NCBI GenBank assembly: GCA_017608505.1
Contig: JAFCFT010000002.1
Span: 15,299 to 79,298, forward strand
DNA length: 64,000 nucleotides
Reading direction: 5' to 3'
Source of the DNA: Candidatus Parvarchaeota archaeon
GTDB taxonomy: Archaea; Nanobdellota; Nanobdellia; WJKC01
Of this stretch, positions 20,059 through 52,027 are shown piece by piece. The translations under genes and the position numbers were made by a program. The notes beneath the pieces are model-generated. The model saw only the letters and a list, made by a program, of their open reading frames with translations, did not search any database and was not told the DNA's origin. Each line of letters starts with the position of its first letter. The first letter of the stretch is position 1.

Positions 20059-20160
20059 CCACCTCCAAGGAGGGGGACTTTCCCTCCCCCTCCTCTAGGC
20101 TACTTCTCCCCCTCCCTCGCATTACTATGTAGGTTTTATGATTAATCAACCACAACCACC
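20038..20160. repeat. 26-bp perfect direct repeat (20038-20063 and 20135-20160) flanking a 71-bp GC-rich hairpin-containing insert between rpoH and rpoB''
   Basis: 'TTTATGATTAATCAACCACAACCACC' occurs twice. One copy encodes the RpoH C-terminus and stop, the other the RpoB'' N-terminus. The insert contains 'GGAGGGGGACTTTCCCTCCCCCTCC'. Confidence 0.7.
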
Positions 20161-21072: not shown

Positions 21073-22071
21073 ATGTATGGTCCTTTTCCTGTCATTATAA
21101 TATTGTTTTCAGTTGGCTTTTTAATCATTCTTCATGCCTTAAAAACTAAAAAACATAAAAAGCATGCGAGAACTTTTGATGAATTGCTCCTTGGCGCGTT
21201 TCACATAATATTGTGTTTCATATACCCTTTGTATTATTTGCGTTTTCCTTCTCTTTCTAGCACTTTGTATCTTTTAACAAATATTTTAGCAGTGGCAACA
21301 ATATGTTTTTTACTTTTAATCCTTGCTTTTGAAAAATTCAATGTTTCAAAACATCCTTATCTTAAAAAGAAAAGATCCTACGCGTCTTTTAAAAAAAATT
21401 TCCTTTCAAATTACAATAAACAAAACAGATACAAAAGAAGGATAACACACATAATACCTGCGTTAGTGATACTTCCCATTTATTTAATTGGCAAGTCATT
21501 TGCTCCCTTGCTTCCAGATTGGGAAGCATGGTGCGTTGGATTAATAACAAGTGCTGGCGTATGTTTTGTTCTTGTTTTCTCAATTGCAGACCTCGTGCGG
21601 GTTTCTAAACCAGAATTGCTGCCTGAATGGGCAAGCAAACTTTTTTCAAAAGGATTAAACAAAGAAGAAGTCTTAGACAACACATTTACAACATCCTCTG
21701 CAATGATTCTTGGATTTGCTCCTTGGCTCCTTGCAGGCCTTCTTGTTTTTACAATTGTTTCTCTTGTTGCCTCTGTCTCTGACGCAATGGCGGCAATTAC
21801 GGGATTTAGATTTGGAAGGCACAGATTTCCAAAAAAAGGAAGAAAAACAGTGGAGGGCTACATAGCAGGCATACTTACCACATTTAGTTTAGTCATTGCC
21901 TCATTTTTCATACTTTCAACAATCAATCCTTTGTTAATAATCTTGTTTGGTCTGTTTCTTGCAGGAGCTTTCTTTTTAGTTGATGTTTTAAATCTTCCAA
22001 TAGATGACAATAAAATTAATCCTCAAGTAATAGGCTTTGTCCTACTAATCTTATTGGCAAGTTTTAGATAA
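21073..22071 (+). CDS. Polyprenol (dolichol) kinase / CdsA-family membrane protein
   Basis: A multi-TM protein with 'SDAMAAITGFRFGRHRFPKKGRKTVEGYIAG', matching the dolichol kinase/CdsA C-terminal motif. Confidence 0.5.
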   Translation: MYGPFPVIIILFSVGFLIILHALKTKKHKKHARTFDELLLGAFHIILCFIYPLYYLRFPSLSSTLYLLTNILAVATICFLLLILAFEKFNVSKHPYLKKKRSYASFKKNFLSNYNKQNRYKRRITHIIPALVILPIYLIGKSFAPLLPDWEAWCVGLITSAGVCFVLVFSIADLVRVSKPELLPEWASKLFSKGLNKEEVLDNTFTTSSAMILGFAPWLLAGLLVFTIVSLVASVSDAMAAITGFRFGRHRFPKKGRKTVEGYIAGILTTFSLVIASFFILSTINPLLIILFGLFLAGAFFLVDVLNLPIDDNKINPQVIGFVLLILLASFR

Positions 22072-22529
22072 CAGCAAACTTGCAAGCGTTGCCATTGATG
22101 CCAACAGCCCTATTGCTCCAGGCTCATAATTGTTGATTACGTATCCCCCTATTATAGGAGCAATTACATAGCTTGCACTTGTAAGGGAATTAATTGCCCC
22201 CATTGTTTTTCCAATCTCACCTTTTACCCTTTTGCTTATCTCGCTAATTATTATCGGCTTTGCAATAATAAGCATAAATACTATGTATAGCATGATCCAC
22301 GTATTTGTATAATAAATCCTGCAAAAGCAAACGTTTGTGATACTATTAATATGGTCCTTCTTCCATACTTGTCGCTTAGTTTTCCTGCAAAAGGCGCAGT
22401 TGCAAACTGGCTTGCGAAATACACAGTTATTATTTGTCCAACAAGAAAAGGCGTTGCGCCTAATGTAGCTCCTAATCCAAGAGACTCAGCAAATATTATG
22501 TATGCTGCTAGCGCATGCTTGTTATTCAT
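22051..22529 (-). pseudogene. Frameshifted, truncated remnant of an MFS transporter (two ORF fragments, 22281-22529 and 22051-22293)
   Basis: The upstream fragment carries the MFS motif 'GKLSDKYGRRT'. The downstream fragment continues the TM helices in a different frame. Combined length is only about 160 aa. Confidence 0.45.
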
Positions 22530-23026: not shown

Positions 23027-23231
23027 TGAGCCCGGAGGGATTTCCAATCCAAAAATTCTTCTCTGGCTTTTGAACCCCCGACACCCTGGTATCCTCCAGG
23101 GAGAGCCTGGTAAAAGCTTCACCTCCGTACCATCAAGCTGTTGCTTGATCCTGCAATCAAAAAGACTGCAGGCGCTTCGTAATCAAAGCGGGTTGGTGGT
23201 CAGGTGCTCTACCAAGCTGAGCTACGGGCCC
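23027..23231 (-). tRNA. Intron-containing tRNA gene (~205 nt primary transcript; putative introns near the anticodon loop and at T-loop 59/60); anticodon not resolved
   Basis: Minus-strand 5' part 'GGGCCCG TA GCTC AGCTTGGTA GAGC A CCTGA' is a perfect acceptor/D-arm/anticodon-stem start. The 3' end 'CGGGCTC A' pairs with it. 'A CCAGG GTGTC GGGGG TTCAAA' then about 28 nt then 'T CCCTC' completes the anticodon 3' stem, variable loop and T-arm. Confidence 0.6.
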
Positions 23232-23841
23232 ACTTATTGAAAATTAATTTTATTTCCTTTTTAAGGCTTTTCATTTCTTTGTCATTTATCAACAGCCCAT
23301 AAACAACGGCAGTGCGCCCTGGCGCTTTCCCATTTTTGTACCATAGCAGTTCTTTATTAAACATTTTTTTTGTCAAGTAATTGCAGTCAACTCCAGTTGC
23401 CTCAAGACTGTATCTTTTTAAATCAGGGTGTTTGCAAGGCAATCCCTTCGTAAGATTGCACGGCCTGCATTTTTTGCATGCTCCGCTTCCAAGCAAAATT
23501 CCCCCTGCTTTGTCTTTAAGCATTCTCATTACCTTTTCACAGCGCGATTTAAGACACGAATTAGCAAGCATGACTTTAAGATAATCTTTATATCCGTATC
23601 CTTCTAATTGGTCAAGGTTTGCATACATATGCACAACAAGCATTGCATCATAACCCTTCGCCAGCCTTTTAAATGACGGAGCTATTGGAGGACAACAATA
23701 TTTTTTGCCGTAATTCCTGCACCCTTCTTTGCACATTTTGTCAAACAAGACTTTATTCACTTTTACTTCACTGCATTTTATAAATCCGTATTCGCACTTT
23801 GCTTTTAATTCATGTTTTGGCGTCTTGATTATTAAAAACAT
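23209..23841 (-). CDS. Cysteine-rich predicted metal-binding protein (DUF2284-like)
   Basis: 210 aa with many Cys (CEYGFIKC, CKEGCRNYGKKYCCPP, CKKCRPC). The C-terminal 23 nt overlap the tRNA 5' end, so the stop may be misassigned. Confidence 0.4.
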   Translation of the reverse strand: MFLIIKTPKHELKAKCEYGFIKCSEVKVNKVLFDKMCKEGCRNYGKKYCCPPIAPSFKRLAKGYDAMLVVHMYANLDQLEGYGYKDYLKVMLANSCLKSRCEKVMRMLKDKAGGILLGSGACKKCRPCNLTKGLPCKHPDLKRYSLEATGVDCNYLTKKMFNKELLWYKNGKAPGRTAVVYGLLINDKEMKSLKKEIKLIFNKWARSSAW

Positions 23842-26304: not shown

Positions 26305-26385
26305 TTTGAATTAGTATCATTTGCTTCCCTTATAAATTTTTTTAGTTTTTACTTGCTCTTGCTGGTATTATAACTGCATAAGTGG

Positions 26386-26397
26386 ACGCCCGGGCCG
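26386..26397. repeat. att-like core, distal copy (duplicate of the tRNA-Asp 3' end)
   Basis: A 12-nt GC-rich match to 51867-51878 in an AT-rich intergenic region. Confidence 0.5.
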
Positions 26398-26677
26398 CGC
26401 GTTAGTACAGTTGGTCATACCGCCCGGTCGTTACTTCAACTGGATAATGAATAATACGCAGTACTGATTTATAAATTCCTTTAAAACTTTTTTAGGGATA
26501 GACGCCCTAACTTTTCTCAAGCTCTTCAATGCACTTTTTCAAGTAATTAATTATTGCCTGTTTTTCTGGGCTGACTTTTTTAGGCTTTATGTTTTTGGTC
26601 AGTTCTCGGTACCAATCAGGCAGTTGTGATAAAGTTTCATTCATTAGAGTAATTATTTTGAGAAGTTGTATTTAAAG

Positions 26678-29536
26678 TTAGGATAGCTTTATACCCATAT
26701 TTCTTGCTGTTAAATCAACTGCCATTCTATTGATATCTTCATTCATCGCCATGAATTTGCTGATTAAATTTGGGTTTTTGTCTAATAAGAAATCCATAAA
26801 TTTTTCTGTTAATCTTTTTAGAAGCCCTTTTTTAAATACCATTCCTAAATCTTTATCTTTGTTACCTTTAATCATTGTTGTAACAAATTCATCATGGGTT
26901 ACATTTTCAATATATTCTTCTATTAATCCTTTTTCATCATCAGATAATGATGATTCAAATCTTAAGTTAATTGCTTCAACAACTTCTTTAACAGTTACAT
27001 ATTCTATTTCTCTTTTTTTACCCGCACTAATTATTTCTTTTTCTTTTGGTTTTTCCTTTTTAACTTCTTTTATTTTATATTTAGTTACATAAATTTTTTC
27101 TAGTTCTTTATCAAGCATTCTAAGTTTACCAAAAGGGCTTAAATAATTAGCCATATAATACGAAAACCTAGCAAAGTTTCTTAAGTCTTTATCTCTGATT
27201 ACGAATAAATTGTTTAAGAAGTTAAATGTATTATTATACTTCACTAATAAGCCTCTGAATTCTCTTCTTTTCTTAACTTCATATTTATGCAATCTCTTTT
27301 CTATATTTTGCGCAATTTTTTCAAAATAGAGATTAGTTTCATTATTAAGTATCCCTATATTAAAATCGTCTACGTCTTTTTTAGTAAAAACATTCCAATT
27401 AATTAAATCAATATATATTTTACTTAGTTCTTTAGTGTCTAATCCTGTTCTATCAATAACTGTTTTTTTGTATCTTCTGAATGCTTTTATAATTTCTTTG
27501 TACGAGTTCGTGAAATCAATTGTTAATGTGTCCCTTTTGTTTGGGAATACTCTGTTTAATCTGCTTATAGTTTGCACAGCATTAATTCCTGAAACACTTT
27601 TATCAAGAAACATTGTGTGTAATAATGGTTGATTAAATCCATATTGAAACTTGTTGGCCACTATTAAAAATCTGTAATTTTTTTTCTTAAATTCATCCTC
27701 AATTTTTCCTTTTATTTTATTTAAGTTTGCTTCAGTATATACTTTATCATCACCTTTTTTTAATTTAATACTACCTGTAAACGCCACTAAAGTTTTGTAC
27801 TCTAATCCTTGGTCTTGTAATTCTTTGTCTAATATTAGTTTATACTTAACTGCTGCTTTGCGACTGCTAGTTACTATCATTGCTTTGGCATAATTATCTT
27901 TTATTGCATTCTTAGTATGTTCTTCAAATATTTTGATTATGATTTTCACTTTAGCCTTTATTATATTTTCATCCTCGTAAGCTTTGGCTTTAATTTTTTT
28001 AATAACTGGCAATGGAGGGTATTCTTTACCTTCTCCTATTTTTTCTGATAACTTGTATAGTGTTTCGTAAGGAATAATATTATCAGATACATTGAGTATT
28101 TTACCCTCTTTTTCTGCTTGATCCATACTATAAACATCAAAGGGTTTACCAAACATTTGTATTGTTTTATCACTTGGGGTTGCAGTTAATGCAATAAAAA
28201 CCAAGTTTGGAAATTTTCTCTTAACTAATTCTGCACTTAACTCGTCTTGGAAGTTTTCTTCATAAGGTTCAAAATAACCTAACATGTTTTTGTGTAGTTT
28301 ACCTGTTTGTGATCTGTGCGCTTCATCAATTATTATACAAATCTTTTTACCTTTCTGTTCTGTTAGTAATTCTTTTAACTTTGTGACTGAGAATTTGTGT
28401 ATGGTGCTTACCACTACTTTTTTATTTTTGTTTAATGCTGTTGCTAATTCTTTCGTTGTTTCAACATAGGCTACTAAACCTTTTTGTGTTTCAACGTTTC
28501 TTATTTCATTTCCTAATTGTGTGTTAAGATTAATCCTATCTGTCAGTATTACTATTGAATCAAACAAAGGTTTATTATCGTAATGTATGTGTCTTAGGAA
28601 TCTTTGGAGTATTGCTATTGTGTAACTTTTACCGCTTCCTGCACTATGTTGTATTAAGTATCTTAAATCTAGTTTCTTAGTTTTCGAATAATTCTTTAAT
28701 ATATCTTCTCTAATTTTATTTACTGTTCTTCTCTGATGATATCGTGGGAAGAAAAAAGTAGTAACTTCTCTTCCATCTGGAAGTTTTACTTTTATGGTAT
28801 GCAAGTAATGTTCTATTATTTCTATTAATGATTCTGGTGTTAGTATTTCATTATACAAATATTCTATATTATACTCATTCTCTACTTGCGGGTTAATTAA
28901 GTCTTTGTTAAACCATACGAAGTCTTCAACACTATTACTAATGAATTCAGTGGCTATCTTAACATTTTTAGTGTCTGCTGCGATATGTAGTATTGGTTTC
29001 TTAAATATGTTCAAGCTTTTATCCCTGTCATCAATGTATTGTATTACTGCGTCATCAACTACTTGACCAGTTAATGGATTCTTTAATTCTATTGTGATTA
29101 AGGCAAAACCATTTAGGAATAAAACAATGTCTATTGATTCCATTGTTTTTCTGAAACAGAATTGTCTAACGTAACTGAAAATGTTTGATTCATAACGTTT
29201 TAATGTTTCAGGATTATAACTCGTCTCGGGTTTAAAATAAATTAACCTAATTTTAATATCATTGATTGTTATTCCATCTCTTAAGACCTCAAATAATTTC
29301 TTTTTATCTAATTCTTTACTAATCACTTTCTTAACTTCTTTAAGCCACTTATTGCCAAAAAATGATTTTAATTCTTTAACTTCTTCTGGTTGGGTTCTGG
29401 TTAAGAACTCCATTAATATATTATCGTCGATGTTAATACTTAAATCGATGTCATCAGTAACCCGCTTGCGATAACCATGGGCTTCTAATCTTTCACAAAA
29501 ATGAGTCTCAAACTTCTCTTCTTTCGGACCAGTCAC
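26678..29536 (-). CDS. hsdR: Type I restriction enzyme R subunit (HsdR)
   Basis: 952 aa with SF2 motifs 'HSAGSGKS' and 'IIDEAHRSQ', and an N-terminal nuclease region. It overlaps hsdS by 4 nt. Confidence 0.85.
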   Translation of the reverse strand: MTGPKEEKFETHFCERLEAHGYRKRVTDDIDLSINIDDNILMEFLTRTQPEEVKELKSFFGNKWLKEVKKVISKELDKKKLFEVLRDGITINDIKIRLIYFKPETSYNPETLKRYESNIFSYVRQFCFRKTMESIDIVLFLNGFALITIELKNPLTGQVVDDAVIQYIDDRDKSLNIFKKPILHIAADTKNVKIATEFISNSVEDFVWFNKDLINPQVENEYNIEYLYNEILTPESLIEIIEHYLHTIKVKLPDGREVTTFFFPRYHQRRTVNKIREDILKNYSKTKKLDLRYLIQHSAGSGKSYTIAILQRFLRHIHYDNKPLFDSIVILTDRINLNTQLGNEIRNVETQKGLVAYVETTKELATALNKNKKVVVSTIHKFSVTKLKELLTEQKGKKICIIIDEAHRSQTGKLHKNMLGYFEPYEENFQDELSAELVKRKFPNLVFIALTATPSDKTIQMFGKPFDVYSMDQAEKEGKILNVSDNIIPYETLYKLSEKIGEGKEYPPLPVIKKIKAKAYEDENIIKAKVKIIIKIFEEHTKNAIKDNYAKAMIVTSSRKAAVKYKLILDKELQDQGLEYKTLVAFTGSIKLKKGDDKVYTEANLNKIKGKIEDEFKKKNYRFLIVANKFQYGFNQPLLHTMFLDKSVSGINAVQTISRLNRVFPNKRDTLTIDFTNSYKEIIKAFRRYKKTVIDRTGLDTKELSKIYIDLINWNVFTKKDVDDFNIGILNNETNLYFEKIAQNIEKRLHKYEVKKRREFRGLLVKYNNTFNFLNNLFVIRDKDLRNFARFSYYMANYLSPFGKLRMLDKELEKIYVTKYKIKEVKKEKPKEKEIISAGKKREIEYVTVKEVVEAINLRFESSLSDDEKGLIEEYIENVTHDEFVTTMIKGNKDKDLGMVFKKGLLKRLTEKFMDFLLDKNPNLISKFMAMNEDINRMAVDLTARNMGIKLS

Positions 29537-30843
29537 GCTACCACCTTCATTTTACCAGTAACACAATCATTAATTAAAACCCTCTTATATTCTTCTAACC
29601 TTTTGATTTCATCCTCAATGATATCTATAGCACTCTTTATTTTCTCAGTAAAAGAATCCAAAAAAGCAACAATAGCTTCTTGTTCTTCTTTGTCCGGTAA
29701 TGGAAAATAAAAATTAACAAACGTTTTTTGGTACAAATGAGAAATTGTTGAACCTGTCTTAATATATTCAATAAAATTATTAAAAAGTTCTGAATTAAGA
29801 ACCCAGAACATAAACTTTGGCACGTAAATATTATTTTCAGGTCTTATAACAAAAACACCACTATTAAGAGTGGCTTTTCCGTAAAAACCTTCAATAAATG
29901 CTACTTTTCCAATACTACCATCTTTTGTAACTAAAACATCTTCATTTTGAATTTGTATATATGGATCCTGTAAATATCTTTCTTCATCAACGTGATGACA
30001 GGTTTCCCAATTTATTTTACCATTTTCAAAATTGGTTCCAGTTATTAAATAAGGCCCTTCATCTCTATATTCCTTAGATGTTAATCCTTGCCAACCTATT
30101 CTTGATTTAACATAAGATGTTGTTTTTATTCTTTTAATTTTAAACCTTTTAGCAATATGATTTAGCCATTTTATTCCACTGTCTTTCATTTCAACATTAG
30201 GGTTTAATCCTTTAGTGACTGCTTGATTAATAACTATTTTCTCATACTCTTTCAGTAATTCAACTTGTTTACGCTTATTATTAATCACTTTATCTAACTT
30301 ACTGGTCTTATCATCCAAAAAAGAAGCAATAGCCTCTTGCTCGTCTTTTGGTGGGAAAGGTATTTTAAAATTCTTAACAATATTTTCATTAATATGTCCC
30401 TGGGCCCCTCCAATTGTTTTTTTTAAAAAATAATCTTTTGAATTTAGCAATATGTAAAATAAGAATCTTGGAATAAAAGAATTATTAGGATAAAGTGCTG
30501 TAACTGATTGGTTAGCTGCAGAATCAAATTTTAAATAAGCAACATTGGCTCTAGTGGCGCCAGTTAGAGCAATTAATACAGAATTCCTTGGAAATAATTT
30601 AGCTGAACTTTCACTTAAACCTAACTCAGTAATAAAAATATCTGCTTCATATAAATCACAATTTTGAATTTTACCTGATGGTAACCAAGGAATGTTTCCA
30701 CCCCAATATTCTGATTTGGCTGTTGATGGAGTCCCCCCACTCGAAGTATTTGCAAAATTTTTAATTTTTCTTAATCTCCAATGTTTTGGTAAAGACTCGA
30801 CATATTCATAATCCACACATTTATACTCCTGATAAGTTCTCAT
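29533..30843 (-). CDS. hsdS: Type I RM specificity subunit (HsdS), two TRDs
   Basis: Duplicated conserved spacers 'PFPPKDEQEAIASFLD' and 'FPLPDKEEQEAIVAFLD'. Confidence 0.85.
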   Translation of the reverse strand: MRTYQEYKCVDYEYVESLPKHWRLRKIKNFANTSSGGTPSTAKSEYWGGNIPWLPSGKIQNCDLYEADIFITELGLSESSAKLFPRNSVLIALTGATRANVAYLKFDSAANQSVTALYPNNSFIPRFLFYILLNSKDYFLKKTIGGAQGHINENIVKNFKIPFPPKDEQEAIASFLDDKTSKLDKVINNKRKQVELLKEYEKIVINQAVTKGLNPNVEMKDSGIKWLNHIAKRFKIKRIKTTSYVKSRIGWQGLTSKEYRDEGPYLITGTNFENGKINWETCHHVDEERYLQDPYIQIQNEDVLVTKDGSIGKVAFIEGFYGKATLNSGVFVIRPENNIYVPKFMFWVLNSELFNNFIEYIKTGSTISHLYQKTFVNFYFPLPDKEEQEAIVAFLDSFTEKIKSAIDIIEDEIKRLEEYKRVLINDCVTGKMKVVA

Positions 30844-31805
30844 GTTTCTTCACTCCTTGTTAATTCGAAGTCAAATTCTTGTAATTTTAAAGCACATTCA
30901 ATAATATAATTGATACAAAAATCTAAATCTTCCTTATTAAAGGTTATTTCTGTTGATGGCATATGAAAAATTGGCTCAGGAGAACCAATAGCCCATACTG
31001 GTTTAGGGATAATTAATGAAAACTTAATGAATTTTCTATAATCTAAGCCAAAAGCAAGAATCTTAACGGCTTTTTGCATAGACTCAATAGATTCCTTTAC
31101 TTTATCAATAAACTCAGATAATCTATCAACATCAAATACTTGATTTTCATTGTTTAGATTAGGAATAAAATTATTTCTTATATTAAAACTATTCAACCAA
31201 GTCATATCTTTTCCAAAGAAAAAAGGTGACTCTCCAAACCTTGTTCTTTTTGATGACTCATAATCCTTTAATAAAAACTCAAAAGCCAAGGAAAGAGCTT
31301 TAATAGATTCATTCTTATTTGAAGAGAATTCACTTTTAGCTTTCTCTAAATAACTTCTAACTTTACTATTAAAAACCAAATTTATAAGAGAGATATCCTT
31401 AACATCAAGGTTATAAACATTTTTACATAATTCTTCAAAAATATTATTTGCAATAATTCTAGATTCTTGAACATCTGTTTTACTTGAAAATATTCCATGA
31501 TGCTTTAAATTAACTCTTTTTCTTTTTAATTTATCTAAACTTGGTCTTGAACTAATTTCAACTTTTGGAGGATTATCATTTATCCAATCATTTATTTTAT
31601 CAAAATATTGCATAAAACTAAGATTATTTGAGTTTATGTCCTTATCTTCTAAGACTAATAAAAATGCTAGTTCAAGAGCATCATGATAATGTAAAAGTGC
31701 CACTGAAGATAACGGTTCTGGTTTTTTGGATTCTTCATTTCCTTTTTCAATTAAGAATTTAGCAAAAGCCAATCTTTTAAGTATAATTTCTCGAGTTAAT
31801 GACAT
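30840..31805 (-). CDS. Unknown protein embedded in the Type I RM operon between hsdM and hsdS (possible HEPN-like toxin/abortive-infection component)
   Basis: 321 aa, all-alpha in appearance, translationally coupled (4-nt overlaps) with hsdS. It has an Rx4H-like 'RVNLKHH' segment. No ATPase motifs. Confidence 0.35.
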   Translation of the reverse strand: MSLTREIILKRLAFAKFLIEKGNEESKKPEPLSSVALLHYHDALELAFLLVLEDKDINSNNLSFMQYFDKINDWINDNPPKVEISSRPSLDKLKRKRVNLKHHGIFSSKTDVQESRIIANNIFEELCKNVYNLDVKDISLINLVFNSKVRSYLEKAKSEFSSNKNESIKALSLAFEFLLKDYESSKRTRFGESPFFFGKDMTWLNSFNIRNNFIPNLNNENQVFDVDRLSEFIDKVKESIESMQKAVKILAFGLDYRKFIKFSLIIPKPVWAIGSPEPIFHMPSTEITFNKEDLDFCINYIIECALKLQEFDFELTRSEET

Positions 31806-31821
31806 TTTTAATCCTCCATAA

Positions 31822-33582
31822 TCATTTTATTAGCCCTAATTCTTTTAGCAGTTTTTTATTTTCTTCTTCTAAGTCTCTAAATTCTTTGATTACTTCTTCT
31901 TGCGACCTTAAAGGTTTATACTTATAAAAGTATTGAGTGAAATTAATCTCGTAACCAACAACCTGTTTCTTAATCTTATATGGTTTTTCAACTTCACGCT
32001 TTAAATATTCGTTAATATCTTCTTTTAGTGGGACATACTCAGCGTCATTAATCTTAACAATTTGAGTGACCTCCTTTCGTTCACCATTAACTTTTTTCAC
32101 AACAGTTTCTTTCTTAGGATTGCCGTTTTCATCAACATCAGTAAGTTCAAGAAATACCTTAGTATAACCAAAATCCTCATTATCAAAAATCTTGGAATTA
32201 TCAGACTCCTTAAATTCCTTATAAATCTCAAAAATCTTAACAATTTGGTCATCAGAGATATACTTACGCTTATTACCAAGACTCTTCTTCATAGGCTCAT
32301 AAAAATTAACAGCATTAATGAGTTGTACCTTACCCCTCCTTCTAGGTTCTTTCCTATTACGGATTATCCATCTGTACGTGGCTATACCTGTGTTATAAAA
32401 TAAATCAGTAGGTAAAGCAATAATTGCATCAATCAGATCATTCTCCAATAAATACTTCCTAAAATTACTTTCACCACTACCAGCATCCCCAGTGAATAAA
32501 GGACTGCCATTAAAAACAATAGCAATACCACTGTCCCCATCACTAGGATTCTTAAGTTTAGATAACATGTGCATTAAGAACAAAGTAGCCCCATCAGACA
32601 CGCGAGGAAGCATGTCCTTAGGGAAACGACCACTAGCATCATCAAGAATAGCTTTTTTATCCTTCTTCCAAGTAACACCGAAAGGAGGATTAGACAACAT
32701 GAAATCAAACTTAGCATTAGGAAACTTATCATTAGTTAATGTATTGCCAAATTTAATATTATCAGACTCTTCACCCTTAATTAACATATCAGAAGCGCCT
32801 ATCGCCCAAGTCTCAGGTTGCTTTTCCTGACCATAAACAATCACTTTAGCCTTAGGATTAACTTCTTTAAGAATAAATTCTTTAGCAATCACTAGCATAC
32901 CCCCAGTACCACATGCAGGGTCATAAATCTCTTTAATCTCACCATCCTTAATCTTAGAATCATTAATCAAAAGTTTAACCATTAATTTAATAACTTCACG
33001 AGGAGTAAAATGTTGTCCTGCTTCCTCACCAGTCTGCTCTGAAAAACGCCTAATTAACTCCTCAAAGATGTAACCCATCTTCTCGTTACTAATAACTTGG
33101 GGAGACAAGTTTAACTCAGAATACTGCTTTAATAATGGATACAACAATTTATCCTTCTCTAACTTATTTAACTCTTTGAAAAGACCAAAGTATTCAATAA
33201 TCATTTTAATATTATCTGTAAAACCATTCAAGTAACTCTTAAAATTCTCTTTAATCTCACTAGTTTTTTCAGCGCAAAGTTTTTCGAAAGTAAACTTAGA
33301 TTTATTATCAAATCCGAGAGAGGTAATTAATTTGTTATGAATAAACTTCCTCTTTTCCGCGTCATCCATTTTAATATTTTTAAGTTTTTTTTCAATTTCT
33401 TTCCTTTTTTCTTCTAAAACACACTCAATCCTTCTAAGAACAACAAAAGGCAATATAATGTCTTGATACTGATGTTGCTTATAAGTATCTCTTAATATTT
33501 CAGCAGATTGCCAGATAAAATTTACTTCAGCACTTATATTAATATGGTCTGCTTTCATATTATAAAACATAACATACACCAT
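31822..33582 (-). CDS. hsdM: Type I RM N6-adenine DNA methyltransferase (HsdM)
   Basis: 'DPACGTGGML' (motif I) and 'LSNPPFG' (motif IV), 586 aa. Confidence 0.9.
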   Translation of the reverse strand: MVYVMFYNMKADHINISAEVNFIWQSAEILRDTYKQHQYQDIILPFVVLRRIECVLEEKRKEIEKKLKNIKMDDAEKRKFIHNKLITSLGFDNKSKFTFEKLCAEKTSEIKENFKSYLNGFTDNIKMIIEYFGLFKELNKLEKDKLLYPLLKQYSELNLSPQVISNEKMGYIFEELIRRFSEQTGEEAGQHFTPREVIKLMVKLLINDSKIKDGEIKEIYDPACGTGGMLVIAKEFILKEVNPKAKVIVYGQEKQPETWAIGASDMLIKGEESDNIKFGNTLTNDKFPNAKFDFMLSNPPFGVTWKKDKKAILDDASGRFPKDMLPRVSDGATLFLMHMLSKLKNPSDGDSGIAIVFNGSPLFTGDAGSGESNFRKYLLENDLIDAIIALPTDLFYNTGIATYRWIIRNRKEPRRRGKVQLINAVNFYEPMKKSLGNKRKYISDDQIVKIFEIYKEFKESDNSKIFDNEDFGYTKVFLELTDVDENGNPKKETVVKKVNGERKEVTQIVKINDAEYVPLKEDINEYLKREVEKPYKIKKQVVGYEINFTQYFYKYKPLRSQEEVIKEFRDLEEENKKLLKELGLIK

Positions 33583-33602
33583 TAATATTTATTTTTATAT
33601 AA

Positions 33603-33821
33603 TTAACCATAAATAGTCCATGCTTCCTTTTTGAAACTTTTTTCAAACTCTTTAGTTCGAATTTCTTCAAATAGCATGTAAGACTCTAAAAAGACTTTCA
33701 TACATTTCTCACAAACAGGTATTCTACCATTTTTATTTTTTTTGTTACCTAAGAACTTATCTGTTTTAGACTTACAAAAGTGGCAATTGTACTTCTTTAT
33801 TCTTAACAAGTTCTTAATCAT
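33603..33821 (-). CDS. Small zinc-finger protein
   Basis: 72 aa, 'CHFCKS...CEKC'. Confidence 0.35.
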   Translation of the reverse strand: MIKNLLRIKKYNCHFCKSKTDKFLGNKKNKNGRIPVCEKCMKVFLESYMLFEEIRTKEFEKSFKKEAWTIYG

Positions 33822-33894
33822 TATATCACCTCCATTTTTCCTAAATAATAATGGACAATTAAAGTATTAAAATATTATATTAGAAATTACAAAA

Positions 33895-34602
33895 TTATTC
33901 TGTAATATTGAGTGCTACAAGTAATTTACCTGCTGGTTTTAAGATTACCCTGGTGTTCCTTCCTTCTCTTTCCATTTCAATTAAACCACGCCGCTTTAAA
34001 GATTTAAGACTAGCATTAATTTTTTGTGGTTTATGAATAAAAGGCAACTCACCATATCTATCCTTAAAATTTTCACAATATACCCTTCTAAAATAAGTAC
34101 AATTTTCTACTTCACCATTAAATGAATTAAGAATCTTAAGAATATTCCATTGTACATTAGTTAAATCTGTTGCTTTAGGAATTTTAAACATTGGCAATTC
34201 ATTTACCAAATCCTTAGTTTTAGCATCCTTTAATATACGTTTATCAAGAACATAATAACCTGTTGCATTAATTAAAATTATAGCAATACTAGCTGCGGCA
34301 GCCATAATATTGGTGCCCATGGTTATATTAAAATAAAAATTAATATTGGAATTGTTTTTTAATTCAATATCTGCAGTTTTTTTTACTTTTATAATTAAAT
34401 CAGTTAATTCAAATGGATTAATAGTAATTGTAGAAACAGAATCACAAATAGCTAATTTAATAATCTTTTCTGCTTCTTTAGAAACATTCTTAGTGCCTTC
34501 AGAATCAATAAGGTAAACTTTATCTATATCCTCGTAGTGCTTTAAACCAGTAATAATTGGTTCAATTCCGCTTTTTCCAACATTAATAAAATGGATATTC
34601 AT
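33895..34602 (-). CDS. CARF-domain plus winged-helix transcriptional regulator (Csa3-like)
   Basis: The N-terminal Rossmann-like 'IHFINVG...VYLIDSEG...NITMGTN' parallels the Csa3 CARF 'DLTMGMR' ligand loop. The C-terminal wHTH is 'LKSLKRRGLIEMEREGRNTRVILKPAG'. Confidence 0.5.
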   Translation of the reverse strand: MNIHFINVGKSGIEPIITGLKHYEDIDKVYLIDSEGTKNVSKEAEKIIKLAICDSVSTITINPFELTDLIIKVKKTADIELKNNSNINFYFNITMGTNIMAAAASIAIILINATGYYVLDKRILKDAKTKDLVNELPMFKIPKATDLTNVQWNILKILNSFNGEVENCTYFRRVYCENFKDRYGELPFIHKPQKINASLKSLKRRGLIEMEREGRNTRVILKPAGKLLVALNITE

Positions 34603-34647
34603 AATGTTAAAATTAAAAGTTGTAATATCTTAAAAAATATTGCTATA

Positions 34648-35334
34648 CTATAAATATTTAATCATTAAATCCAATAATTCATCGAAAGCGTATAAAGATA
34701 ACAAAAAAATATTAAAGATTACTAAAAACCCTCCAGGACTTTTTTTATTAGTTATAAGATCAGTACTTGAATATCGTTTTTTTATTGGATCGTGATGTTT
34801 ATCTCTTTCATCAGATAAAAAATCAAAAATAAAAAAAAATCTTGGATTTACTGCATCGTATTTTTTTAAAGTAGAAAATAAATTCTTATCCAATTTTACC
34901 CCACTCATTATTATTCCAGGATTCTGTAATCGCCCAACAGTCTCCTTATACATATCTTTGTATTTACAAAAAATAGTAAAATTCTTCGCATAAATAGACA
35001 TTCTGTCACCCTTTTCTTTAGGATCTATATCTATATTTAACTTGTTCAATATTACTTTGAAAACTCTTTTAAAAACAGCATCATTCAATGCACTGACAAT
35101 ATCAACAAAATAAGCAGAATTATCACTACTAATAATCCTTTTTATATCATTCTTTTGATCAATTAAATATTCTATCGCTGCTTCTAATTCTTTTTTTTGA
35201 ATAGAAGTTAACCAAGAAATTTTTTCAAGTTTTTTAATAATGTCCTCTTTAACAAAGTCAATATTATCCAATACACCTTTTATTGATTTTTTTATTTCTT
35301 TAAGACTACAGTCACGACTACTCATTAAAATCAC
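34648..35334 (-). CDS. hypothetical protein with a C-terminal transmembrane helix
   Basis: 228 aa with a hydrophobic C-terminal 'GGFLVIFNIFLLSLYAF'. It overlaps the downstream Type IIG gene by 4 nt. Confidence 0.35.
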   Translation of the reverse strand: MILMSSRDCSLKEIKKSIKGVLDNIDFVKEDIIKKLEKISWLTSIQKKELEAAIEYLIDQKNDIKRIISSDNSAYFVDIVSALNDAVFKRVFKVILNKLNIDIDPKEKGDRMSIYAKNFTIFCKYKDMYKETVGRLQNPGIIMSGVKLDKNLFSTLKKYDAVNPRFFFIFDFLSDERDKHHDPIKKRYSSTDLITNKKSPGGFLVIFNIFLLSLYAFDELLDLMIKYL

Positions 35335-37397
35335 TTATATAAATTATCTAATTCTTTTTTTAGTAAAACTATTTGTGATTCTAACAAATCAATTTTATTT
35401 TGCAATTCTTTTGCCTTTAACATTTTTTCTTTTTGTTTATCAAAGCGTAGTAATGGAATCCTCAAATTTTTTAGTGTATCTATTGGTAAGTGCTTTATCA
35501 CTCCATAACTAAAATTCTCGATTTGTTTTTTAACATAATCGGTTTTTAATAATGAATGTAAATAATAAGGATTAATATCTTTTTTTGGTCTTAAAGCAAC
35601 AAGAGAACTCGAGTGAACTCCTCTATAATCTTCATTAAATATAGCGGTTTTACCTATAGTACCAGTAATTGAAAATAGTATGTCGCCTTTATTTAAATTA
35701 AATTTAAATTTTGAAGAATCGATATTGACTAAATCTTTATTAACAATCGTTCCTGCATATAAATTTAATATTCTAATATACTTTATTTTGCCCTTCCCAT
35801 AATCTTTTTTTGGAACGTGGATCCCAGGGTAGATTTCACATAATTCTTGCAATCTTACAATTTTAATATTATTCTTGCGATACGTTTCTTCAATTTTCTT
35901 TATATCATTCAAATAAGGACCAAATGACAATATATAATTATAACTTTTGATTTCGTTTATACATACTAATTTTCGTAACTTTCCTAAAATCAAAGGTTTA
36001 TCTTCTTCGAATTTTTTAATATACTCTACAATCCCTTCAAATTCCATTTTTAATTTTTCATTAGCAACATCTTTATTTGAGTAATCTTCTTTACAATCAA
36101 TCATCAAAATATCGTTTTTGGTCCTACAATTATCAATAATCATTATTGATGATTGAATATGCATTAATGGGGCCCAAATATTTATAGGCAAGTTTATAAT
36201 CGCTTTAATTGAGTATTCTTCTAATAAATATTTTCTGAAATGCTTATTTGTATTGTCAAATAAAAAACCATTGGGAACTATTACTATTAATCTACCTTTT
36301 GGATTTAATGATTTAAGTGCAACATAAATAAAAGCAGCTTCAACACTTTTAAATTTGGTTAAATCATTTAATTTATCCTTATTTGGCCTTAATCCAAATG
36401 GAGGATTCAAAAATATTACATCAAATTTTTCATGAATCTGGTCATTAAGAACATTTTTAATTTGTAACTCAACATCAATATTTAAGAGGTACTTTATTAA
36501 TTTTATAAAATAAATATTATTCGAATTTTTTTCAAAACCAGTTAATTTAAAATTGTTCAATAAAGCATTTTTTACTAAAACTTGACCTTTTTTGCAATTA
36601 AAATCTGCAAATGATCTAGAATCCTCTTTTATTAATCCCAAAATAAAGTCAACCAATATATTTGGAATATAAGATTCGTCAAATTTACTATTTATTAATT
36701 TGTAATCATATACTATATTTATTATTTTTTCCAATGTTTTTTTATCCAAACTAAGTATATTTAAACTTTTCATTAATAATTCCAAATCGTTTTCTTTGTT
36801 AGTAAAAAGTTTATTAATATTCAAATATTCGGGATCAATATTAAGTTCTCTTGATAACTTTTTTGATAACTCATTTATTTTATCTTTAAATTCATTTAAA
36901 TTTTTGTATTCAAATAAATTTTTAGACCTACCATATTTAATTAACGCCAATAATTTTATAATTATAACTGTACCATTTTCTCTATAATTCCTTAGGTAAT
37001 TAAATATTCTCCAAATTTTACTCGTAACATCAGTATCAAAAGACTCAAGTAATGGAATTTCAGGTACTTCACTAATTTTCTTATTTTTTTTCCTAAAATA
37101 GATAAAATTATCTCCGTTAGTTAATATTCCATAAGGAAAATTAGAATTTAACAACAATTCATTCAATTGAATTTTTGATAAACTACTATCAATCAACTTT
37201 TTAATTTCAATTAAAATATAAGGTTTTGAATCAACATAACAAACTAAATCAGCAATATATTTTACACCATTTTTAATAAAACAACAATTTTTCTCAAATA
37301 ACACATTAACGTCTTTATTAAATCCTGCTCTCAATTTTTCAATAACTTTATTAACAGTTTTTAATCTCCAATTTGGGCGATACTGATTTTCACTCAT
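35331..37397 (-). CDS. Single-chain Type IIG-like restriction-modification enzyme (PD-(D/E)xK nuclease + N6-adenine MTase + HsdS-like TRD)
   Basis: N-terminal 'DLVCYVDSKPYILIEIKK' (D...EIK), 'FLNPPFG' methyltransferase motif IV, and a C-terminal TRD with an HsdS-like conserved tail. 688 aa. Confidence 0.6.
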   Translation of the reverse strand: MSENQYRPNWRLKTVNKVIEKLRAGFNKDVNVLFEKNCCFIKNGVKYIADLVCYVDSKPYILIEIKKLIDSSLSKIQLNELLLNSNFPYGILTNGDNFIYFRKKNKKISEVPEIPLLESFDTDVTSKIWRIFNYLRNYRENGTVIIIKLLALIKYGRSKNLFEYKNLNEFKDKINELSKKLSRELNIDPEYLNINKLFTNKENDLELLMKSLNILSLDKKTLEKIINIVYDYKLINSKFDESYIPNILVDFILGLIKEDSRSFADFNCKKGQVLVKNALLNNFKLTGFEKNSNNIYFIKLIKYLLNIDVELQIKNVLNDQIHEKFDVIFLNPPFGLRPNKDKLNDLTKFKSVEAAFIYVALKSLNPKGRLIVIVPNGFLFDNTNKHFRKYLLEEYSIKAIINLPINIWAPLMHIQSSIMIIDNCRTKNDILMIDCKEDYSNKDVANEKLKMEFEGIVEYIKKFEEDKPLILGKLRKLVCINEIKSYNYILSFGPYLNDIKKIEETYRKNNIKIVRLQELCEIYPGIHVPKKDYGKGKIKYIRILNLYAGTIVNKDLVNIDSSKFKFNLNKGDILFSITGTIGKTAIFNEDYRGVHSSSLVALRPKKDINPYYLHSLLKTDYVKKQIENFSYGVIKHLPIDTLKNLRIPLLRFDKQKEKMLKAKELQNKIDLLESQIVLLKKELDNLYK

Positions 37398-37478
37398 AAT
37401 TAAACATTAGTTAGCAGTATTTATATAGTTTAATATTGAATTTACAATTTATTATTGTAATAAAAATATTTAAATAAT

Positions 37479-38051
37479 TTAAAATAATAGCTTACTCACT
37501 TTCCTCTTCACAGCAATCAACGAAGACTCGCATATCCCGAACTCCTTCGTCACTTTTGACATGCTTATTTTCTCTTTGTTCTTCTTGGCAGTGTCGTATA
37601 GGACCACTGCAGCTAAAACCATTGGGTCGTTGTTTAAGCCCATTTTTTCGATTAATTCGATTTTCCTAATTGCCTCGCTTATAGTTTTGCCACTCAAGCC
37701 CAGATTGTTGCTGTAGCGGGTTATCAAACCAGACATCTGCAGCGCCACAACACTAAGTCTTAAGCTCTTAGTGACTGTCTTGTAAGTCCTGAACAAAGAG
37801 TACTTGTCCGTGTCCAGGGCGCGCGCAATCTCCTTCATACTCACAGTATACCCGTCGCGCTTGCACACGTAATAAGTCAGTGCTCCTATTGCCCTGTCAG
37901 TGAATATTCCCTGGCTCTTGCCAAAATTAATTAGTTCCCAGTATAATCGCATAACTTCGCGCTTAACGCTCCTTGGCAGGCATAGTATGTTGTTCAGCAT
38001 GTCAAACTCCCTGCCAGCAGTAAGCACGCGGTTGATTTTTGGAGTGCCCAT
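37479..38051 (-). CDS. TFB-like protein, cyclin-fold core only (no N-terminal Zn-ribbon or B-reader)
   Basis: Two cyclin repeats align to the TFB core ('LCLPRSVKREVMRLYWE', 'RAIGALTYYVCKRDGYTVSMKEIA', 'ITRYSNNLGLSGKTISEAIRKIE'). The likely start is at Met15 (MGTPKINR) with 'CCTTTATATA' about 25 nt upstream. Confidence 0.65.
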   Translation of the reverse strand: MGTPKINRVLTAGREFDMLNNILCLPRSVKREVMRLYWELINFGKSQGIFTDRAIGALTYYVCKRDGYTVSMKEIARALDTDKYSLFRTYKTVTKSLRLSVVALQMSGLITRYSNNLGLSGKTISEAIRKIELIEKMGLNNDPMVLAAVVLYDTAKKNKEKISMSKVTKEFGICESSLIAVKRKVSKLLF

Positions 38052-38234
38052 CGTAGAATTATTGTGAATAAGTAGTATATAAAGGAAAAACAACCGAAGT
38101 AGTTAAAAATTAACAATACAATATATTTTATAAAGATAGTACTGAAATCTAGTCTTTCAAAAATCTATAAGCCAAAATTTAAGTCTAGGTACGCTAAGGA
38201 GAAGTCCTCCAAATAGGTCGCTCAAGTTTCTAAA

Positions 38235-38579
38235 TTACTTTTTATGAATACTCCAACTGAATTTTAATAGGCCTAAATTAACCTCAAAACCAAATGTATG
38301 TTTAAATTTTGGTTGATTTTCTACGATGTTAATACCTTTAGGTAAAATTCGTGTCACAAAAAATATTTGAGCTCCATTTATATTACCTATTGCTCCATAA
38401 CTCTTAAGAATGCCTAAATCATTAAGATAATTATATGCTAAATTAATTCTCTTTCCATTCCATTTTGTTTCATTAATCACATCTCGTGTTCCAACACTAC
38501 TTTTGCCTTTATTCACTAACTCGTTATAAAAGAAAAGTAACAATTCACCCGCATCTTTTTGAACTCCCATTTTCATCAC
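38235..38579 (-). CDS. hypothetical protein
   Basis: 114 aa ORF overlapping the next gene by 4 nt. Confidence 0.3.
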   Translation of the reverse strand: MMKMGVQKDAGELLLFFYNELVNKGKSSVGTRDVINETKWNGKRINLAYNYLNDLGILKSYGAIGNINGAQIFFVTRILPKGINIVENQPKFKHTFGFEVNLGLLKFSWSIHKK

Positions 38580-40051
38580 TTCAAATTTATATTATACACA
38601 AAGAGGTATGGATTAAAATATGCATCATAGCCTAATTCGAATACTAATTTTACAGACGTAACTGACATTGGAACATCTTTAAATAATACATAACCTTTCT
38701 TTGTAACACCAGGATAAATTTTAGAAAATATTGTATCTAATGTTCCACCGAAAGTACTTTCATACTGGTTTCTTTGGTTGTCTATAATTACCATGCCAGA
38801 TGGTGAAAAATAATCACTTTCACTCCCAATATTTTTAACTTCCATATCTACTCTAAAGTATTGTTTTTTATTACTCCATTTGTTATATAGATTAAAGAAA
38901 CCAGCTTTTGTTACAGTTACTTCAAAATTATCATTACTTATTTTTTTATTAACTATTATTGCATTTTTATTATATTCTTCCTCAGCCAATTGCTCATATG
39001 TGTATGTTTTTTTGTTTTTCAAATCGAAAATATAATCTCCAATAATTATTTTTGAGATATCTACATTTTTAGGAACGTTTTTAAAAGCCATATAACCAGT
39101 TTTTTTAGCTCCACTTTCAATCTCTCCTCCTTCAAACTTTGACCTATATGACCTTTCATATTGATTACTACTAGAATCAATCAATTTTGTATTATAAATA
39201 TAGAAAGAATTTGTTTGTTTTGCCTCAACTTCTAAATCGACTCTTAAAAGGTTTTCTGCAGATATAGAACTATAATCTGTAAAGAATCCATATTTAGTAA
39301 TTCTTATTTTAAAATTATCATCTTCTAATTCCAGTAATGTTTGTTTTGCATTTTTATTATATTCTTCCTCAGCCATTTGCGTAAGTTCTTCTTTTGTGTA
39401 AGTTGGTATCTGTACTACCGTATCTTCTATATGTAATTCTTTTCCATCTGAAGTTACAAAGGTAAGAACTGCCCTACCAAAAGAAGAAATGCCTTTTTGG
39501 ATCTCAGATATTGGTACCCTCCATTCATACGCTTTTCCAATATCTTGACCTGTAAACATAAATTGATAATCAACAAATTCCGATGCCTTTACATCAAATT
39601 CTTTATAATACAGGGAATTATTTAAATTATCAAATATTTCTACCTTCACATGTCCATCTCCAGGTGTGTTTTTCCCATATACATCTTCAAGTAAAAAATA
39701 AAATCTAATTATTTCTCCTTCTTTAACTGTTGCAAAGTAATTTATATTAACAGGCGAATATTTAGAAGCGGTTGTTTGGGATGTATGGGATATTTGTATG
39801 TTTTGTAGAATGTTGGTAGGCGAATATTTAGAAGCGGTTGTTTGGGATGTTTGTGTTTTTTCAGCTGGAATTCCAGTTTGACCTTGCTCTTGAACACAAC
39901 CACATATAAAAACAATTCCAACAATCAAAATTACAATTAATCTTGAATTCATGAATATTTGTTTTTCTATTTTGTTTACCATTTCATAAATTTTATAAAA
40001 TCTTTTTCTTTTAAAGCTTTTTATAATAACAACCCCAAAGGCGGATTGCAA
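38576..40051 (-). CDS. Secreted/surface protein with internal repeats (DUF4352-like Ig-fold repeats)
   Basis: N-terminal TM/signal 'LIVILIVGIVFICGC' with lipobox-like Cys. A duplicated 'SQTTASKYSP.NI' segment is encoded by a 34-bp DNA repeat at 39757/39820. A duplicated 'AEEEYNKNA...NDNF..T.TK.GFF' domain is also present. Confidence 0.45.
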   Translation of the reverse strand: MQSAFGVVIIKSFKRKRFYKIYEMVNKIEKQIFMNSRLIVILIVGIVFICGCVQEQGQTGIPAEKTQTSQTTASKYSPTNILQNIQISHTSQTTASKYSPVNINYFATVKEGEIIRFYFLLEDVYGKNTPGDGHVKVEIFDNLNNSLYYKEFDVKASEFVDYQFMFTGQDIGKAYEWRVPISEIQKGISSFGRAVLTFVTSDGKELHIEDTVVQIPTYTKEELTQMAEEEYNKNAKQTLLELEDDNFKIRITKYGFFTDYSSISAENLLRVDLEVEAKQTNSFYIYNTKLIDSSSNQYERSYRSKFEGGEIESGAKKTGYMAFKNVPKNVDISKIIIGDYIFDLKNKKTYTYEQLAEEEYNKNAIIVNKKISNDNFEVTVTKAGFFNLYNKWSNKKQYFRVDMEVKNIGSESDYFSPSGMVIIDNQRNQYESTFGGTLDTIFSKIYPGVTKKGYVLFKDVPMSVTSVKLVFELGYDAYFNPYLFVYNINLK

Positions 40052-51784: not shown

Positions 51785-51866
51785 AACCTATCACCATTAC
51801 ACTTCATGTATTATCCTGAAGAAGTATTTAAGGTTGGGGTGGTGGGCGTTGCCACCAACCCTCCCT

Positions 51867-51878
51867 ACGCCCGGGCCG
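51867..51878. repeat. att-like core, proximal copy (3' end of tRNA-Asp)
   Basis: Identical to 26386-26397. Confidence 0.5.
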
Positions 51879-51942: not shown

Positions 51943-52027
51943 ATTTTGGTTTCATTATATGCTTAGGATTTTTAAACTTTATCTTGCTGATGGAAAAACA
52001 AAAGTTTTTAAAACAAGTTTTTAAAAT

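Follow-up and report, generated by a model that had tools for sequence, protein, structure and literature searches.

A probable lysine tRNA gene in four exons, interrupted by three introns compatible with bulge–helix–bulge splicing, in a low-G+C archaeal contig

Between positions 23,027 and 23,231 of the window, the whole 64,000-nucleotide stretch of DNA analysed here, lies a 205-nt segment whose two ends read as parts of a tRNA and are held apart by a long insert. The locus raises the question of which tRNA it encodes, how its transcript would be spliced and whether the gene works. A sequence-only reading had recognized a tRNA here, left its anticodon unresolved and suspected non-canonical boundaries on the anticodon side together with a further small intron. 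We found the tRNA in that place on the minus strand (23231→23027, 205 nt) and identified a lysine tRNA gene with anticodon UUU, four exons and three introns; the suspicion proved right, as an intron at 30/31 is accompanied by a 20-nt intron at 37/38. We observed this gene structure, the compatibility of its introns with bulge–helix–bulge (BHB) motifs and its conservation among orthologues. From the sequence, we put the probability that the locus is a functional tRNA-Lys(UUU) gene with introns at 30/31, 37/38 and 59/60 at about 0.9.

In the local numbering used below, position 1 is 23231 and the count runs along the minus strand. The parts of the gene, and the basis on which each exon was placed, are as follows.

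Exon 1, 23201..23231, minus strand: 31 nt, local 1-31; placed by direct reading
Intron 1, 23118..23200, minus strand: 83 nt, between positions 30 and 31; cuts after local 31 and 114
Exon 2 (micro-exon GCUUUUA), 23111..23117, minus strand: 7 nt, local 115-121; placed by enumeration of anticodon arms and by orthologues
Intron 2, 23091..23110, minus strand: 20 nt, at the canonical 37/38 position; cuts after local 121 and 141
Exon 3, 23069..23090, minus strand: 22 nt, local 142-163; an exact 22-mer in three DPANN tRNA-Lys genes, L010 (Ca. Iainarchaeum), L016 (a MAG labelled Ca. Parvarchaeota) and L017 (Woesearchaeota)
Intron 3, 23041..23068, minus strand: 28 nt, in the T-loop at 59/60; cuts after local 163 and 191
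Exon 4, 23027..23040, minus strand: 14 nt, local 192-205; placed by direct reading and cloverleaf pair counts

Exon 1 (GGGCCCG UA GCUC AGCUUGGUA GAGC A CCUG) holds the 5' strand of the acceptor, the D-arm, nucleotide 26 and anticodon-stem positions 27-30 (…GAGC A CCUG). It had been read as also containing the whole 5' strand of the anticodon stem. The acceptor GGGCCCG, UA, the D-arm GCUC/GAGC, A26 and CCUG were all in place, but that strand is incomplete in exon 1: it consists of CCUG plus a G that opens the micro-exon, and does not read CCUGA, since the A in question already belongs to intron 1 as its first base. The micro-exon carries nucleotide 31, loop positions 32-33, the anticodon UUU (34-36) and A37. 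Exon 3 provides A38, the 3' strand of the anticodon stem (CCAGG), the variable loop GUGUC, the T-stem strand GGGGG and T-loop positions 54-59 (UUCAAA), and exon 4 provides U60, the 3' strands of the T-stem (CCCUC) and acceptor (CGGGCUC) and the discriminator A73, with no CCA encoded at its 3' end. Every element previously described for the 3' part was thus seen, from CCAGG, GUGUC, GGGGG and UUCAAA through the 28-nt insert to U, CCCUC, CGGGCUC and the discriminator A. The separating stretch with its CCAGG/CCTGG repeats was also seen, at about 111 nt, and resolves into the 83-nt intron at 30/31, the 7-nt micro-exon and the 20-nt intron at 37/38.

Joining the four exons gives GGGCCCGUAGCUCAGCUUGGUAGAGCACCUGGCUUUUAACCAGGGUGUCGGGGGUUCAAAUCCCUCCGGGCUCA, a 74-nt sequence that has CCUGG-CUUUUAA-CCAGG as its anticodon arm and that ARAGORN calls as tRNA-Lys(ttt). 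All 21 stem pairs of its cloverleaf are intact, U33 and A37 are present, and the invariant bases U8, A14, G18, G19, U33, U54, U55, C56 and A58 are kept. Its G+C content is 61%, against about 35% for the window. In the unspliced window, ARAGORN made no call at this locus, Rfam gave no tRNA match there at the gathering threshold or at E≤10, and the plus strand over the locus has no ORF of at least 80 aa. The whole 205-nt RNA is predicted to fold at -93.3 kcal/mol and is far more structured than its shuffles (z = -6.1).

We searched the 205 nt for BHB motifs, defined as 4 bp with a 3-nt bulge on either side, one in each strand, cut behind the second base of the bulge. More than 100 BHB-like geometries were listed, three of which together restore the tRNA. 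Because such geometries are common by chance, the motif alone proves nothing, and the argument therefore rests on its combination with the cloverleaf and the orthologues. We also enumerated every anticodon arm with a 5-bp stem and a 7-nt loop containing U33 and R37 that one or two deletions between nucleotide 26 and the T-stem can create. There are 130 such arms, and two of them have a 4/4 central helix and correctly spaced bulges at every junction. Both solutions have the same intron 1 and the anticodon UUU, the second differing by a +1 shift of intron 2, and the mature sequence of the better one matches independently found orthologues. Other hairpins of the insert, read as anticodon arms, gave loops of 4, 5 or 6 nt or loops without R37. 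In the solution adopted, all three introns have a 4/4 central helix, with the 5' side of intron 1 relaxed; BHB-compatible structures were thus found at every boundary, and the spliced product has a sound anticodon arm, where the absence of either had been named as an outcome that would speak against the tRNA. We conclude that the fit of the locus to a spliced tRNA is more than chance.

The orthologues allowed the junctions to be read directly. L016 is interrupted at 37/38 only, and there the join of window exons 1 and 2 (GAGCACCUG|GCUUUUA) is contiguous DNA (GAGCACCUGGCUUUUA); likewise, contiguous UUCAAAUCCC spans the join of exons 3 and 4. Exon 1 differs from L016 by one base, and the mature tRNAs differ at 3 of 74 positions. 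In L016 and in the window alike, a HIT-family gene follows immediately downstream of the tRNA, and the two HIT proteins are 68% identical. A further HIT-adjacent gene, L139 (HIT 60% identical), has introns at 37/38 and 59/60 and none at 30/31. In L113, a metagenome contig, the gene precedes an RNA-polymerase operon whose RpoB/RpoA are 47-58% identical to those of the window, and it carries three introns at the same positions, with lengths of 30, 12 and 18 nt and sequences unrelated to those of the window; the first 31 nt are identical to exon 1, and the micro-exon is CCUUUUA, with a compensatory C31-G39 pair. L010, a tRNA-Lys(CUU) gene, is interrupted at 30/31 and 37/38 and has GCUCUUA as its micro-exon, and L017 has the 37/38 intron only. 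The anticodon loop is CUUUUAA or CUCUUAA in all orthologues, with a 5-bp stem. An identical copy of the window locus is present in JGI metagenome 3300033150. A truncated orthologue, L141, was set aside, as its insert of about 50 nt in the T-arm could be placed on no BHB. In a metagenome scan with the 5' exon, about 90% of the matches listed were bacterial tRNA-Pro, and the useful ones among them were L113 and a few Lys(CUU) genes.

When nine relatives, either spliced or free of introns, were compared, 98.9% of cells agreed with cloverleaf pairing, and in seven of the pairs both partners vary. The 31:39 pair spans the join to the micro-exon and is G-C, C-G or A-U among relatives. The L113, L139 and L010 rows of this comparison are not independent, because their splice sites were picked to restore a tRNA; the independent rows are L016 and four intron-less genes.

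Intron 1 is, in the predicted fold, a relaxed form of the BHB motif. In its central helix (CACC/GGUG), the 3' end of the intron contributes GGUG, which pairs with C25-A26-C27-C28. AA|G forms the 3' bulge, and the 5' site, UG|A, is situated in a 3x1 internal loop opposite one unpaired A. A 4-bp outer helix joins A21-G22-A23-G24, which in tRNA numbering are the final base of the D-loop and the three that begin the 3' strand of the D-stem, to C32-U33-U34-U35. This arrangement recurs in L113 and L010; in L010 it is fully Watson-Crick, including G23-C34, in step with the CUU anticodon, and in the window and L113, bases of the D-loop can lengthen it by pairing with the beginning of intron 2. The inner helix h' is irregular in the window and regular in L113 (6 bp) and L010 (5 bp).

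The motif of intron 2 consists of the central helix CUUU (nt 32-35)/GAGG, bulges UA|C and AU|A, and a 4-bp inner helix CAGG/CCUG. In the full precursor its outer helix amounts to a single pair, which excision of intron 1 would turn into the 5-bp anticodon stem. The intron resembles the single intron of L016 (ACCAGGC…UGGAAGAU). At 59/60, where an intron had been proposed, we found the 28-nt intron 3 to be BHB-compatible and also present in L113 and L139, both with perfect central helices. In the window its central helix UUCA/UGGA comprises U54-A, U55-G, C56-G and A57-U, and its bulges are AA|A and AA|U. The 5-bp T-stem serves as the outer helix, and a 7-bp hairpin displaced by one base, which is seen in the minimum free energy (MFE) structure, serves as the inner one. 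The cut is formally ambiguous because it falls in a run of A's, and the BHB register fixes it at 59/60.

Predicted energies bear on the order of splicing. With ViennaRNA, the full precursor has an unconstrained MFE of -93.3 kcal/mol; forcing the motif of intron 3 gives -92.3 kcal/mol, that of intron 1 gives -90.1 kcal/mol (3.2 above the MFE) and that of intron 2 gives -74.0 kcal/mol (19 worse than the MFE). L010 shows the same ranking, with -50.1 against -40.3 kcal/mol and an MFE of -53.3. The outer helix of intron 1 and the central helix of intron 2 both use nt 32-35, and the intron-1 motif also unwinds the D-stem. Since nt 32-35 are shared, the two motifs would be mutually exclusive, the precursor would have to refold between cuts and splicing would be sequential. 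The energies suggest that introns 1 and 3 are removed first and intron 2 last, an order that we propose with low confidence, since the values apply to naked RNA at 37 °C.

The pathway that we propose begins with one precursor of about 205 nt, probably transcribed from its own TATA-box promoter, in which each exon–intron pair would fold into a bulge–helix–bulge motif. Archaeal tRNA splicing endonuclease EndA cleaves BHB motifs in their two 3-nt bulges. Here the cutting enzyme would presumably be an EndA of relaxed specificity, and an RtcB-type ligase would join the exons. The intron-1 motif would form before a refolding step that builds the intron-2 motif on the same nt 32-35, and the product would be the 74-nt cloverleaf, to which CCA would be added afterwards. 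Neither EndA nor RtcB was among the 40 window ORFs scanned with Pfam; a tRNA_int_endo gene is present in L140, a less close relative.

The surroundings of the gene include a candidate promoter, an overlapping ORF and two other tRNA genes.

TATA-like TTAAAAA, 23258..23264, minus strand: 27-33 nt upstream of the mature 5' end; assigned by position only
DUF2284 ORF, 23841-23209, minus strand: upstream on the same strand, with its stop codon inside the tRNA D-loop
tRNA-Tyr(GUA), 53453→53232, minus strand: three introns, at 24/25, 37/38 and 59/60, with clean BHBs
tRNA-Asp, 51867-51943 by ARAGORN and 51868-51942 by Rfam: intron-less, the only tRNA that either program finds in the window

The TTAAAAA element falls in the last codons of the DUF2284 ORF. 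Similar elements (TTTAAA/TTAAAAA) precede the orthologues, as well as the tRNA-Tyr and tRNA-Asp genes of the window, by about 20-40 nt, and this one is probably the archaeal promoter of the tRNA-Lys gene. Downstream lie the HIT gene, two small MFS fragments, rpoH and a split rpoB/rpoA operon. A GC-rich island at 26373-26435 has no Rfam match, no stable fold (z = +0.9) and no homologue among the comparison loci. The tRNA-Tyr gene is the other multi-intron tRNA that had been reported to share the 59/60 position, as it does, and of the three tRNA genes found in these 64 kb, two therefore carry three introns each. With blastn-short, the six introns of the Lys and Tyr genes matched, in the window and all loci, themselves and chance stretches of at most 13 nt, with no similarity between Lys and Tyr introns.

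Three other accounts of the locus would change or deny its product. Were it a decaying tRNA pseudogene with unspliceable junk as inserts, the silence of standard finders and the irregular BHB of intron 1 would be natural. We consider this very unlikely: splicing leaves all 21 cloverleaf pairs and the invariant bases intact, the exons are near-identical to those of the orthologues, and the inserts sit exactly at known intron positions that are BHB-competent. Decay would also sit badly with the interrupted form being conserved in L113, L139 and L010, with a three-intron layout that persists in a relative whose RNA polymerase subunits are only about 47-58% identical, and with the conserved TATA-like element upstream. 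A simpler splicing, in which one long 37/38 intron accompanies the T-loop intron, produces the odd loop CCACCAA that had already been pointed out; we reproduced it, together with its C33 and A31·C39 mismatch. ARAGORN formally accepts that product as tRNA-Gly(acc), yet it has C33 in place of the near-universal U33, the A31·C39 mismatch and an A34 anticodon (ACC). It also lacks a 4-bp central helix (CCAC would need GUGG), is absent from the enumerated solutions and is found in no orthologue, and we give it next to no credence.

The gene could also be real and spliced in another register, with a different anticodon loop as the result. Shifting intron 1 by one base (cuts after local 32 and 113) is predicted to yield a fold of -92.6 kcal/mol, 2.5 kcal/mol more stable than that of the adopted register, and the +1 register of intron 2 retains a 4/4 central helix. 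The shifted intron 1, however, leaves a non-functional 9-nt loop, and the +1 intron 2 gives CUUUUAC, lacks flanking helices, outer and inner alike, and is not adjacent to the anticodon stem. Neither agrees with the orthologues, all of which have the 7-nt loops and 5-bp stem given above, so that a different register is about as improbable as decay, if anything slightly more so. The shifted register of intron 1 nonetheless leaves a real uncertainty about the fidelity of cleavage, and the orthologues argue for the productive register. A tRNA-Lys(UUU) gene with introns at 30/31, 37/38 and 59/60 is hence the reading that we retain.

Compatible with that reading is a further one, in which the 83-nt intron 1 is also a functional stable RNA, either a circularized structured RNA or a guide RNA, modelled on the C/D-box RNA in the tRNA-Trp intron of Haloferax. 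In its favour, intron 1 alone is predicted to form a closing stem and three abutting hairpins at -37.1 kcal/mol, a closed core that stands out against shuffles (z = -6.45), and its length far exceeds that of the introns at the same site in L113 (30 nt) and L010 (45 nt). C/D-box guide RNAs are marked by a C box (RUGAUGA), a D box (CUGA) and a k-turn. Direct reading of intron 1 found no CUGA and merely a degenerate UGAUGG, Rfam gave no match at E≤10, nothing similar was found elsewhere in the window or among 140 comparison loci, and the sequence is not conserved in relatives with an intron at 30/31. A guide-bearing intron of the Haloferax tRNA-Trp type was rejected on the missing boxes and the empty Rfam search, and we regard a separate function for intron 1 as doubtful. 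Its structure, in our view, probably serves as scaffolding through which the two splice sites come close to each other.

A broader interpretation would join three ideas: that this DPANN lineage underwent an independent intron expansion comparable to that of Thermoproteales, that the 30/31 intron is old, and that the 83-nt intron persists as a stable RNA. Taken together these are unlikely, although not far-fetched. On the second, the 30/31 tRNA-Lys intron seen here, in L113 and in Iainarchaeum may be an old, DPANN-wide, cis-spliced ancestor of the split tRNA-Lys of Nanoarchaeum equitans; if it is ancient, intron gain and loss would be naturally documented by the series of syntenic orthologues, whose members have one, two or three introns. 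On the third, the predicted fold suggests as a possibility that the structured intron builds up as a stable RNA, probably a circular one, and serves some function in its own right.

Independently of these ideas, the locus has practical consequences. Both three-intron genes are invisible to ARAGORN and the Rfam tRNA model, and genomes of this lineage will for that reason seem to lack tRNA-Lys(UUU) and tRNA-Tyr. Missed tRNAs distort completeness estimates and codon-usage inferences for DPANN MAGs, a gap noted before (PMC5829648), where incomplete predicted tRNA sets are taken as a hint of undetected disrupted genes. Because the motifs of introns 1 and 2 are mutually exclusive in the predicted folds, the precursor would be a simple substrate for studying ordered splicing and the range of DPANN endonucleases. 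The orthologues with one, two and three introns in conserved neighbourhoods are useful for questions of gain versus loss and of how split genes arise from introns. We regard two three-intron tRNAs within 64 kb of a DPANN-like low-G+C lineage and a 7-nt micro-exon as mildly noteworthy, as we do the coincidence of the 30/31 site with the split tRNA-Lys in a gene whose orthologues have one to three introns.

Positions 30/31, 37/38 and 59/60 are all listed archaeal intron positions, and non-canonical introns often occur alongside a canonical one (PMC4090602). A close counterpart is the class of multiple-intron tRNAs of Thermoproteales (Sugahara et al. 2007, 2008, reviewed in PMC4033280 and PMC4090602), for which a maximum of three introns per gene is recorded (PMC4033280). 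The gene shares with them up to three BHB introns, canonical and non-canonical, at recurrent positions, relaxed BHB forms and short anticodon-bearing internal exons; unlike theirs, its host is a low-GC (about 35%) DPANN-type archaeon and not a crenarchaeon. There is no sign of intron transposition of the Thermoproteales type, because introns of different tRNAs show no similarity. Such transposition marks the expansion in Thermoproteales and does not define the class of multiple-intron tRNAs.

Nanoarchaeum equitans and Staphylothermus encode tRNA-Lys(CUU) in two separate genes, divided exactly at 30/31 (PMC3218864). The amino-acid family, the junction and BHB processing are the same here, whereas the window gene has a collinear cis intron within 205 nt, the anticodon UUU and two extra introns; the locus thus adds a cis-intron at the exact 30/31 site of the split genes. 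The tri-split tRNA-Gly of Caldivirga maquilingensis (Fujishima et al. 2009, cited in PMC4033280) similarly has a short anticodon-bearing middle piece joined by BHBs on both sides, but there the pieces are separate genes, and here they would lie on one transcript. A split or tri-split, trans-spliced tRNA was rejected for this locus, as a single strand carries the four exons in collinear order within 205 nt. The permuted tRNA-Tyr(GUA) and tRNA-iMet of Thermofilum pendens, joined at 59/60, and those of Cyanidioschyzon merolae share the T-loop processing site (PMC3218864), and the window tRNA-Tyr(GUA) is interrupted at the same 59/60 junction. Unlike permuted genes, the tRNA-Lys gene has its exons in normal order, with the 3' part not upstream of the 5' part, and a permuted tRNA was likewise rejected.

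Among DPANN archaea, those with loop-bearing α4 or ε2 endonucleases show raised tRNA disruption, multiple introns included (PMC5829648, PMC3239211); the ε2 type of EndA occurs in ARMAN-1/2 (PMC3239211), and the α4 type has an L3 loop (PMC5829648). The window gene resembles these disrupted genes in its multiple introns and probably belongs to the same superphylum. PMC3239211 and PMC5829648, which give counts and cover few genomes, do not describe this gene, its micro-exon layout or the series of intron presence and absence. Introns at 30/31 and 59/60, three-intron tRNAs and DPANN tRNA disruption are all published; the gene is a new example and not a new phenomenon, and it fits the published picture in every respect that was tested.

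The window holds a second three-intron tRNA gene, a tRNA-Tyr(GUA) at 53232-53453 on the minus strand, with C1-G72 as its first acceptor pair. Its parts, all on the minus strand, are as follows.

53453-53430: first exon
intron at position 24/25, 29 nt
53400-53388: second exon
intron at position 37/38, 42 nt
53345-53324: third exon
intron at position 59/60, 78 nt, GC-rich
53245-53232: fourth exon

[quoted passage not shown] ARAGORN identified the spliced 73-mer as tRNA-Tyr(gta), and neither ARAGORN nor Rfam detected the gene in its unspliced genomic form.

On the 5′ side of the three-intron tRNA-Lys(UUU) gene, a DUF2284 ORF (23841-23209, minus strand) overlaps the tRNA by its last 23 nt (23209-23231) and ends at a UAG within the D-loop (GGUAG). 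Because the ORF reaches into the tRNA, the probable TATA box of the tRNA-Lys gene falls within DUF2284 coding sequence. On the 3′ side, beyond the adjoining HIT-family gene and before the next gene, lie two tiny overlapping ORFs of 82 and 80 aa (22051-22529, minus strand), an arrangement that recurs in the independent contig L001. The 82-aa ORF matches Pfam MFS_1 and, weakly, Sugar_tr, and the 80-aa ORF has no Pfam match; the pair looks like the remains of a broken transporter gene.

A tRNA-Asp gene without an intron (51867-51943, ARAGORN) has a phage-integrase-family gene directly downstream (50615-51784, minus strand), with a GC-rich inverted repeat between the two at about 51831-51867. Together, this region (50615-51943) resembles one end of an element that has integrated here. 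A block at approximately 26678-40051 has a G+C content of 28-29%, compared with about 37% elsewhere. It probably represents a foreign or defence island and may belong to this integrase-bounded element. The following features lie in or near it.

26678-29536: 952-aa ORF, in the block
29533-30843: type I restriction-modification specificity subunit, in the block
37479-38093: TFIIB-repeat fragment, in the block
40605-41168: TFIIB-repeat fragment, just outside the block

Within an AT-rich intergenic region, a GC-rich island of 60 nt (26373-26435) contains the D-arm-like string UAGUACAGUUGGUCAUAC and could be a piece of another disrupted RNA gene. The island matched no Rfam family, showed no stable fold (z = +0.9) and had no homologue among the fetched loci; a weak C/D-box-like match (E = 1.2) adjoins it at 26439-26545. 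Elsewhere, between rpoH and rpoB′, we observed a palindrome-like GC-rich stretch at 20065-20096, which reads CCAAGGAGGGGGACUUUCCCUCCCCCUCCUCU on the plus strand.

Putatively interrupted or unusual tRNA genes were also found among the comparison loci. L141, a contig that begins within the gene, carries a truncated tRNA-Lys orthologue (1-74) adjacent to a HIT gene 56% identical to that of the window. This tRNA ends …CUCCGGGCUCA, and its T-arm contains an insert of about 50 nt, at a position other than 59/60, to which, because of the truncation, no BHB could be fitted. On the metagenome contig L113, about 700 nt from its own three-intron tRNA-Lys, ARAGORN labelled 98 nt (4768-4865, minus strand) as ‘tRNA-???’ and assigned them a 4-base anticodon; this may be a further intron-containing tRNA misread by the program. 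Finally, four metagenomic tRNA-Lys(CUU) genes (L039, L109, L125 and L138) share the 5′ exon of the window gene through CACCUG, followed by A31. Immediately 3′ of the anticodon loop they carry inserts that range from about 60 nt to far more than 100 nt and appear to be long 37/38 introns; the insert of L109 runs past the stretch shown.
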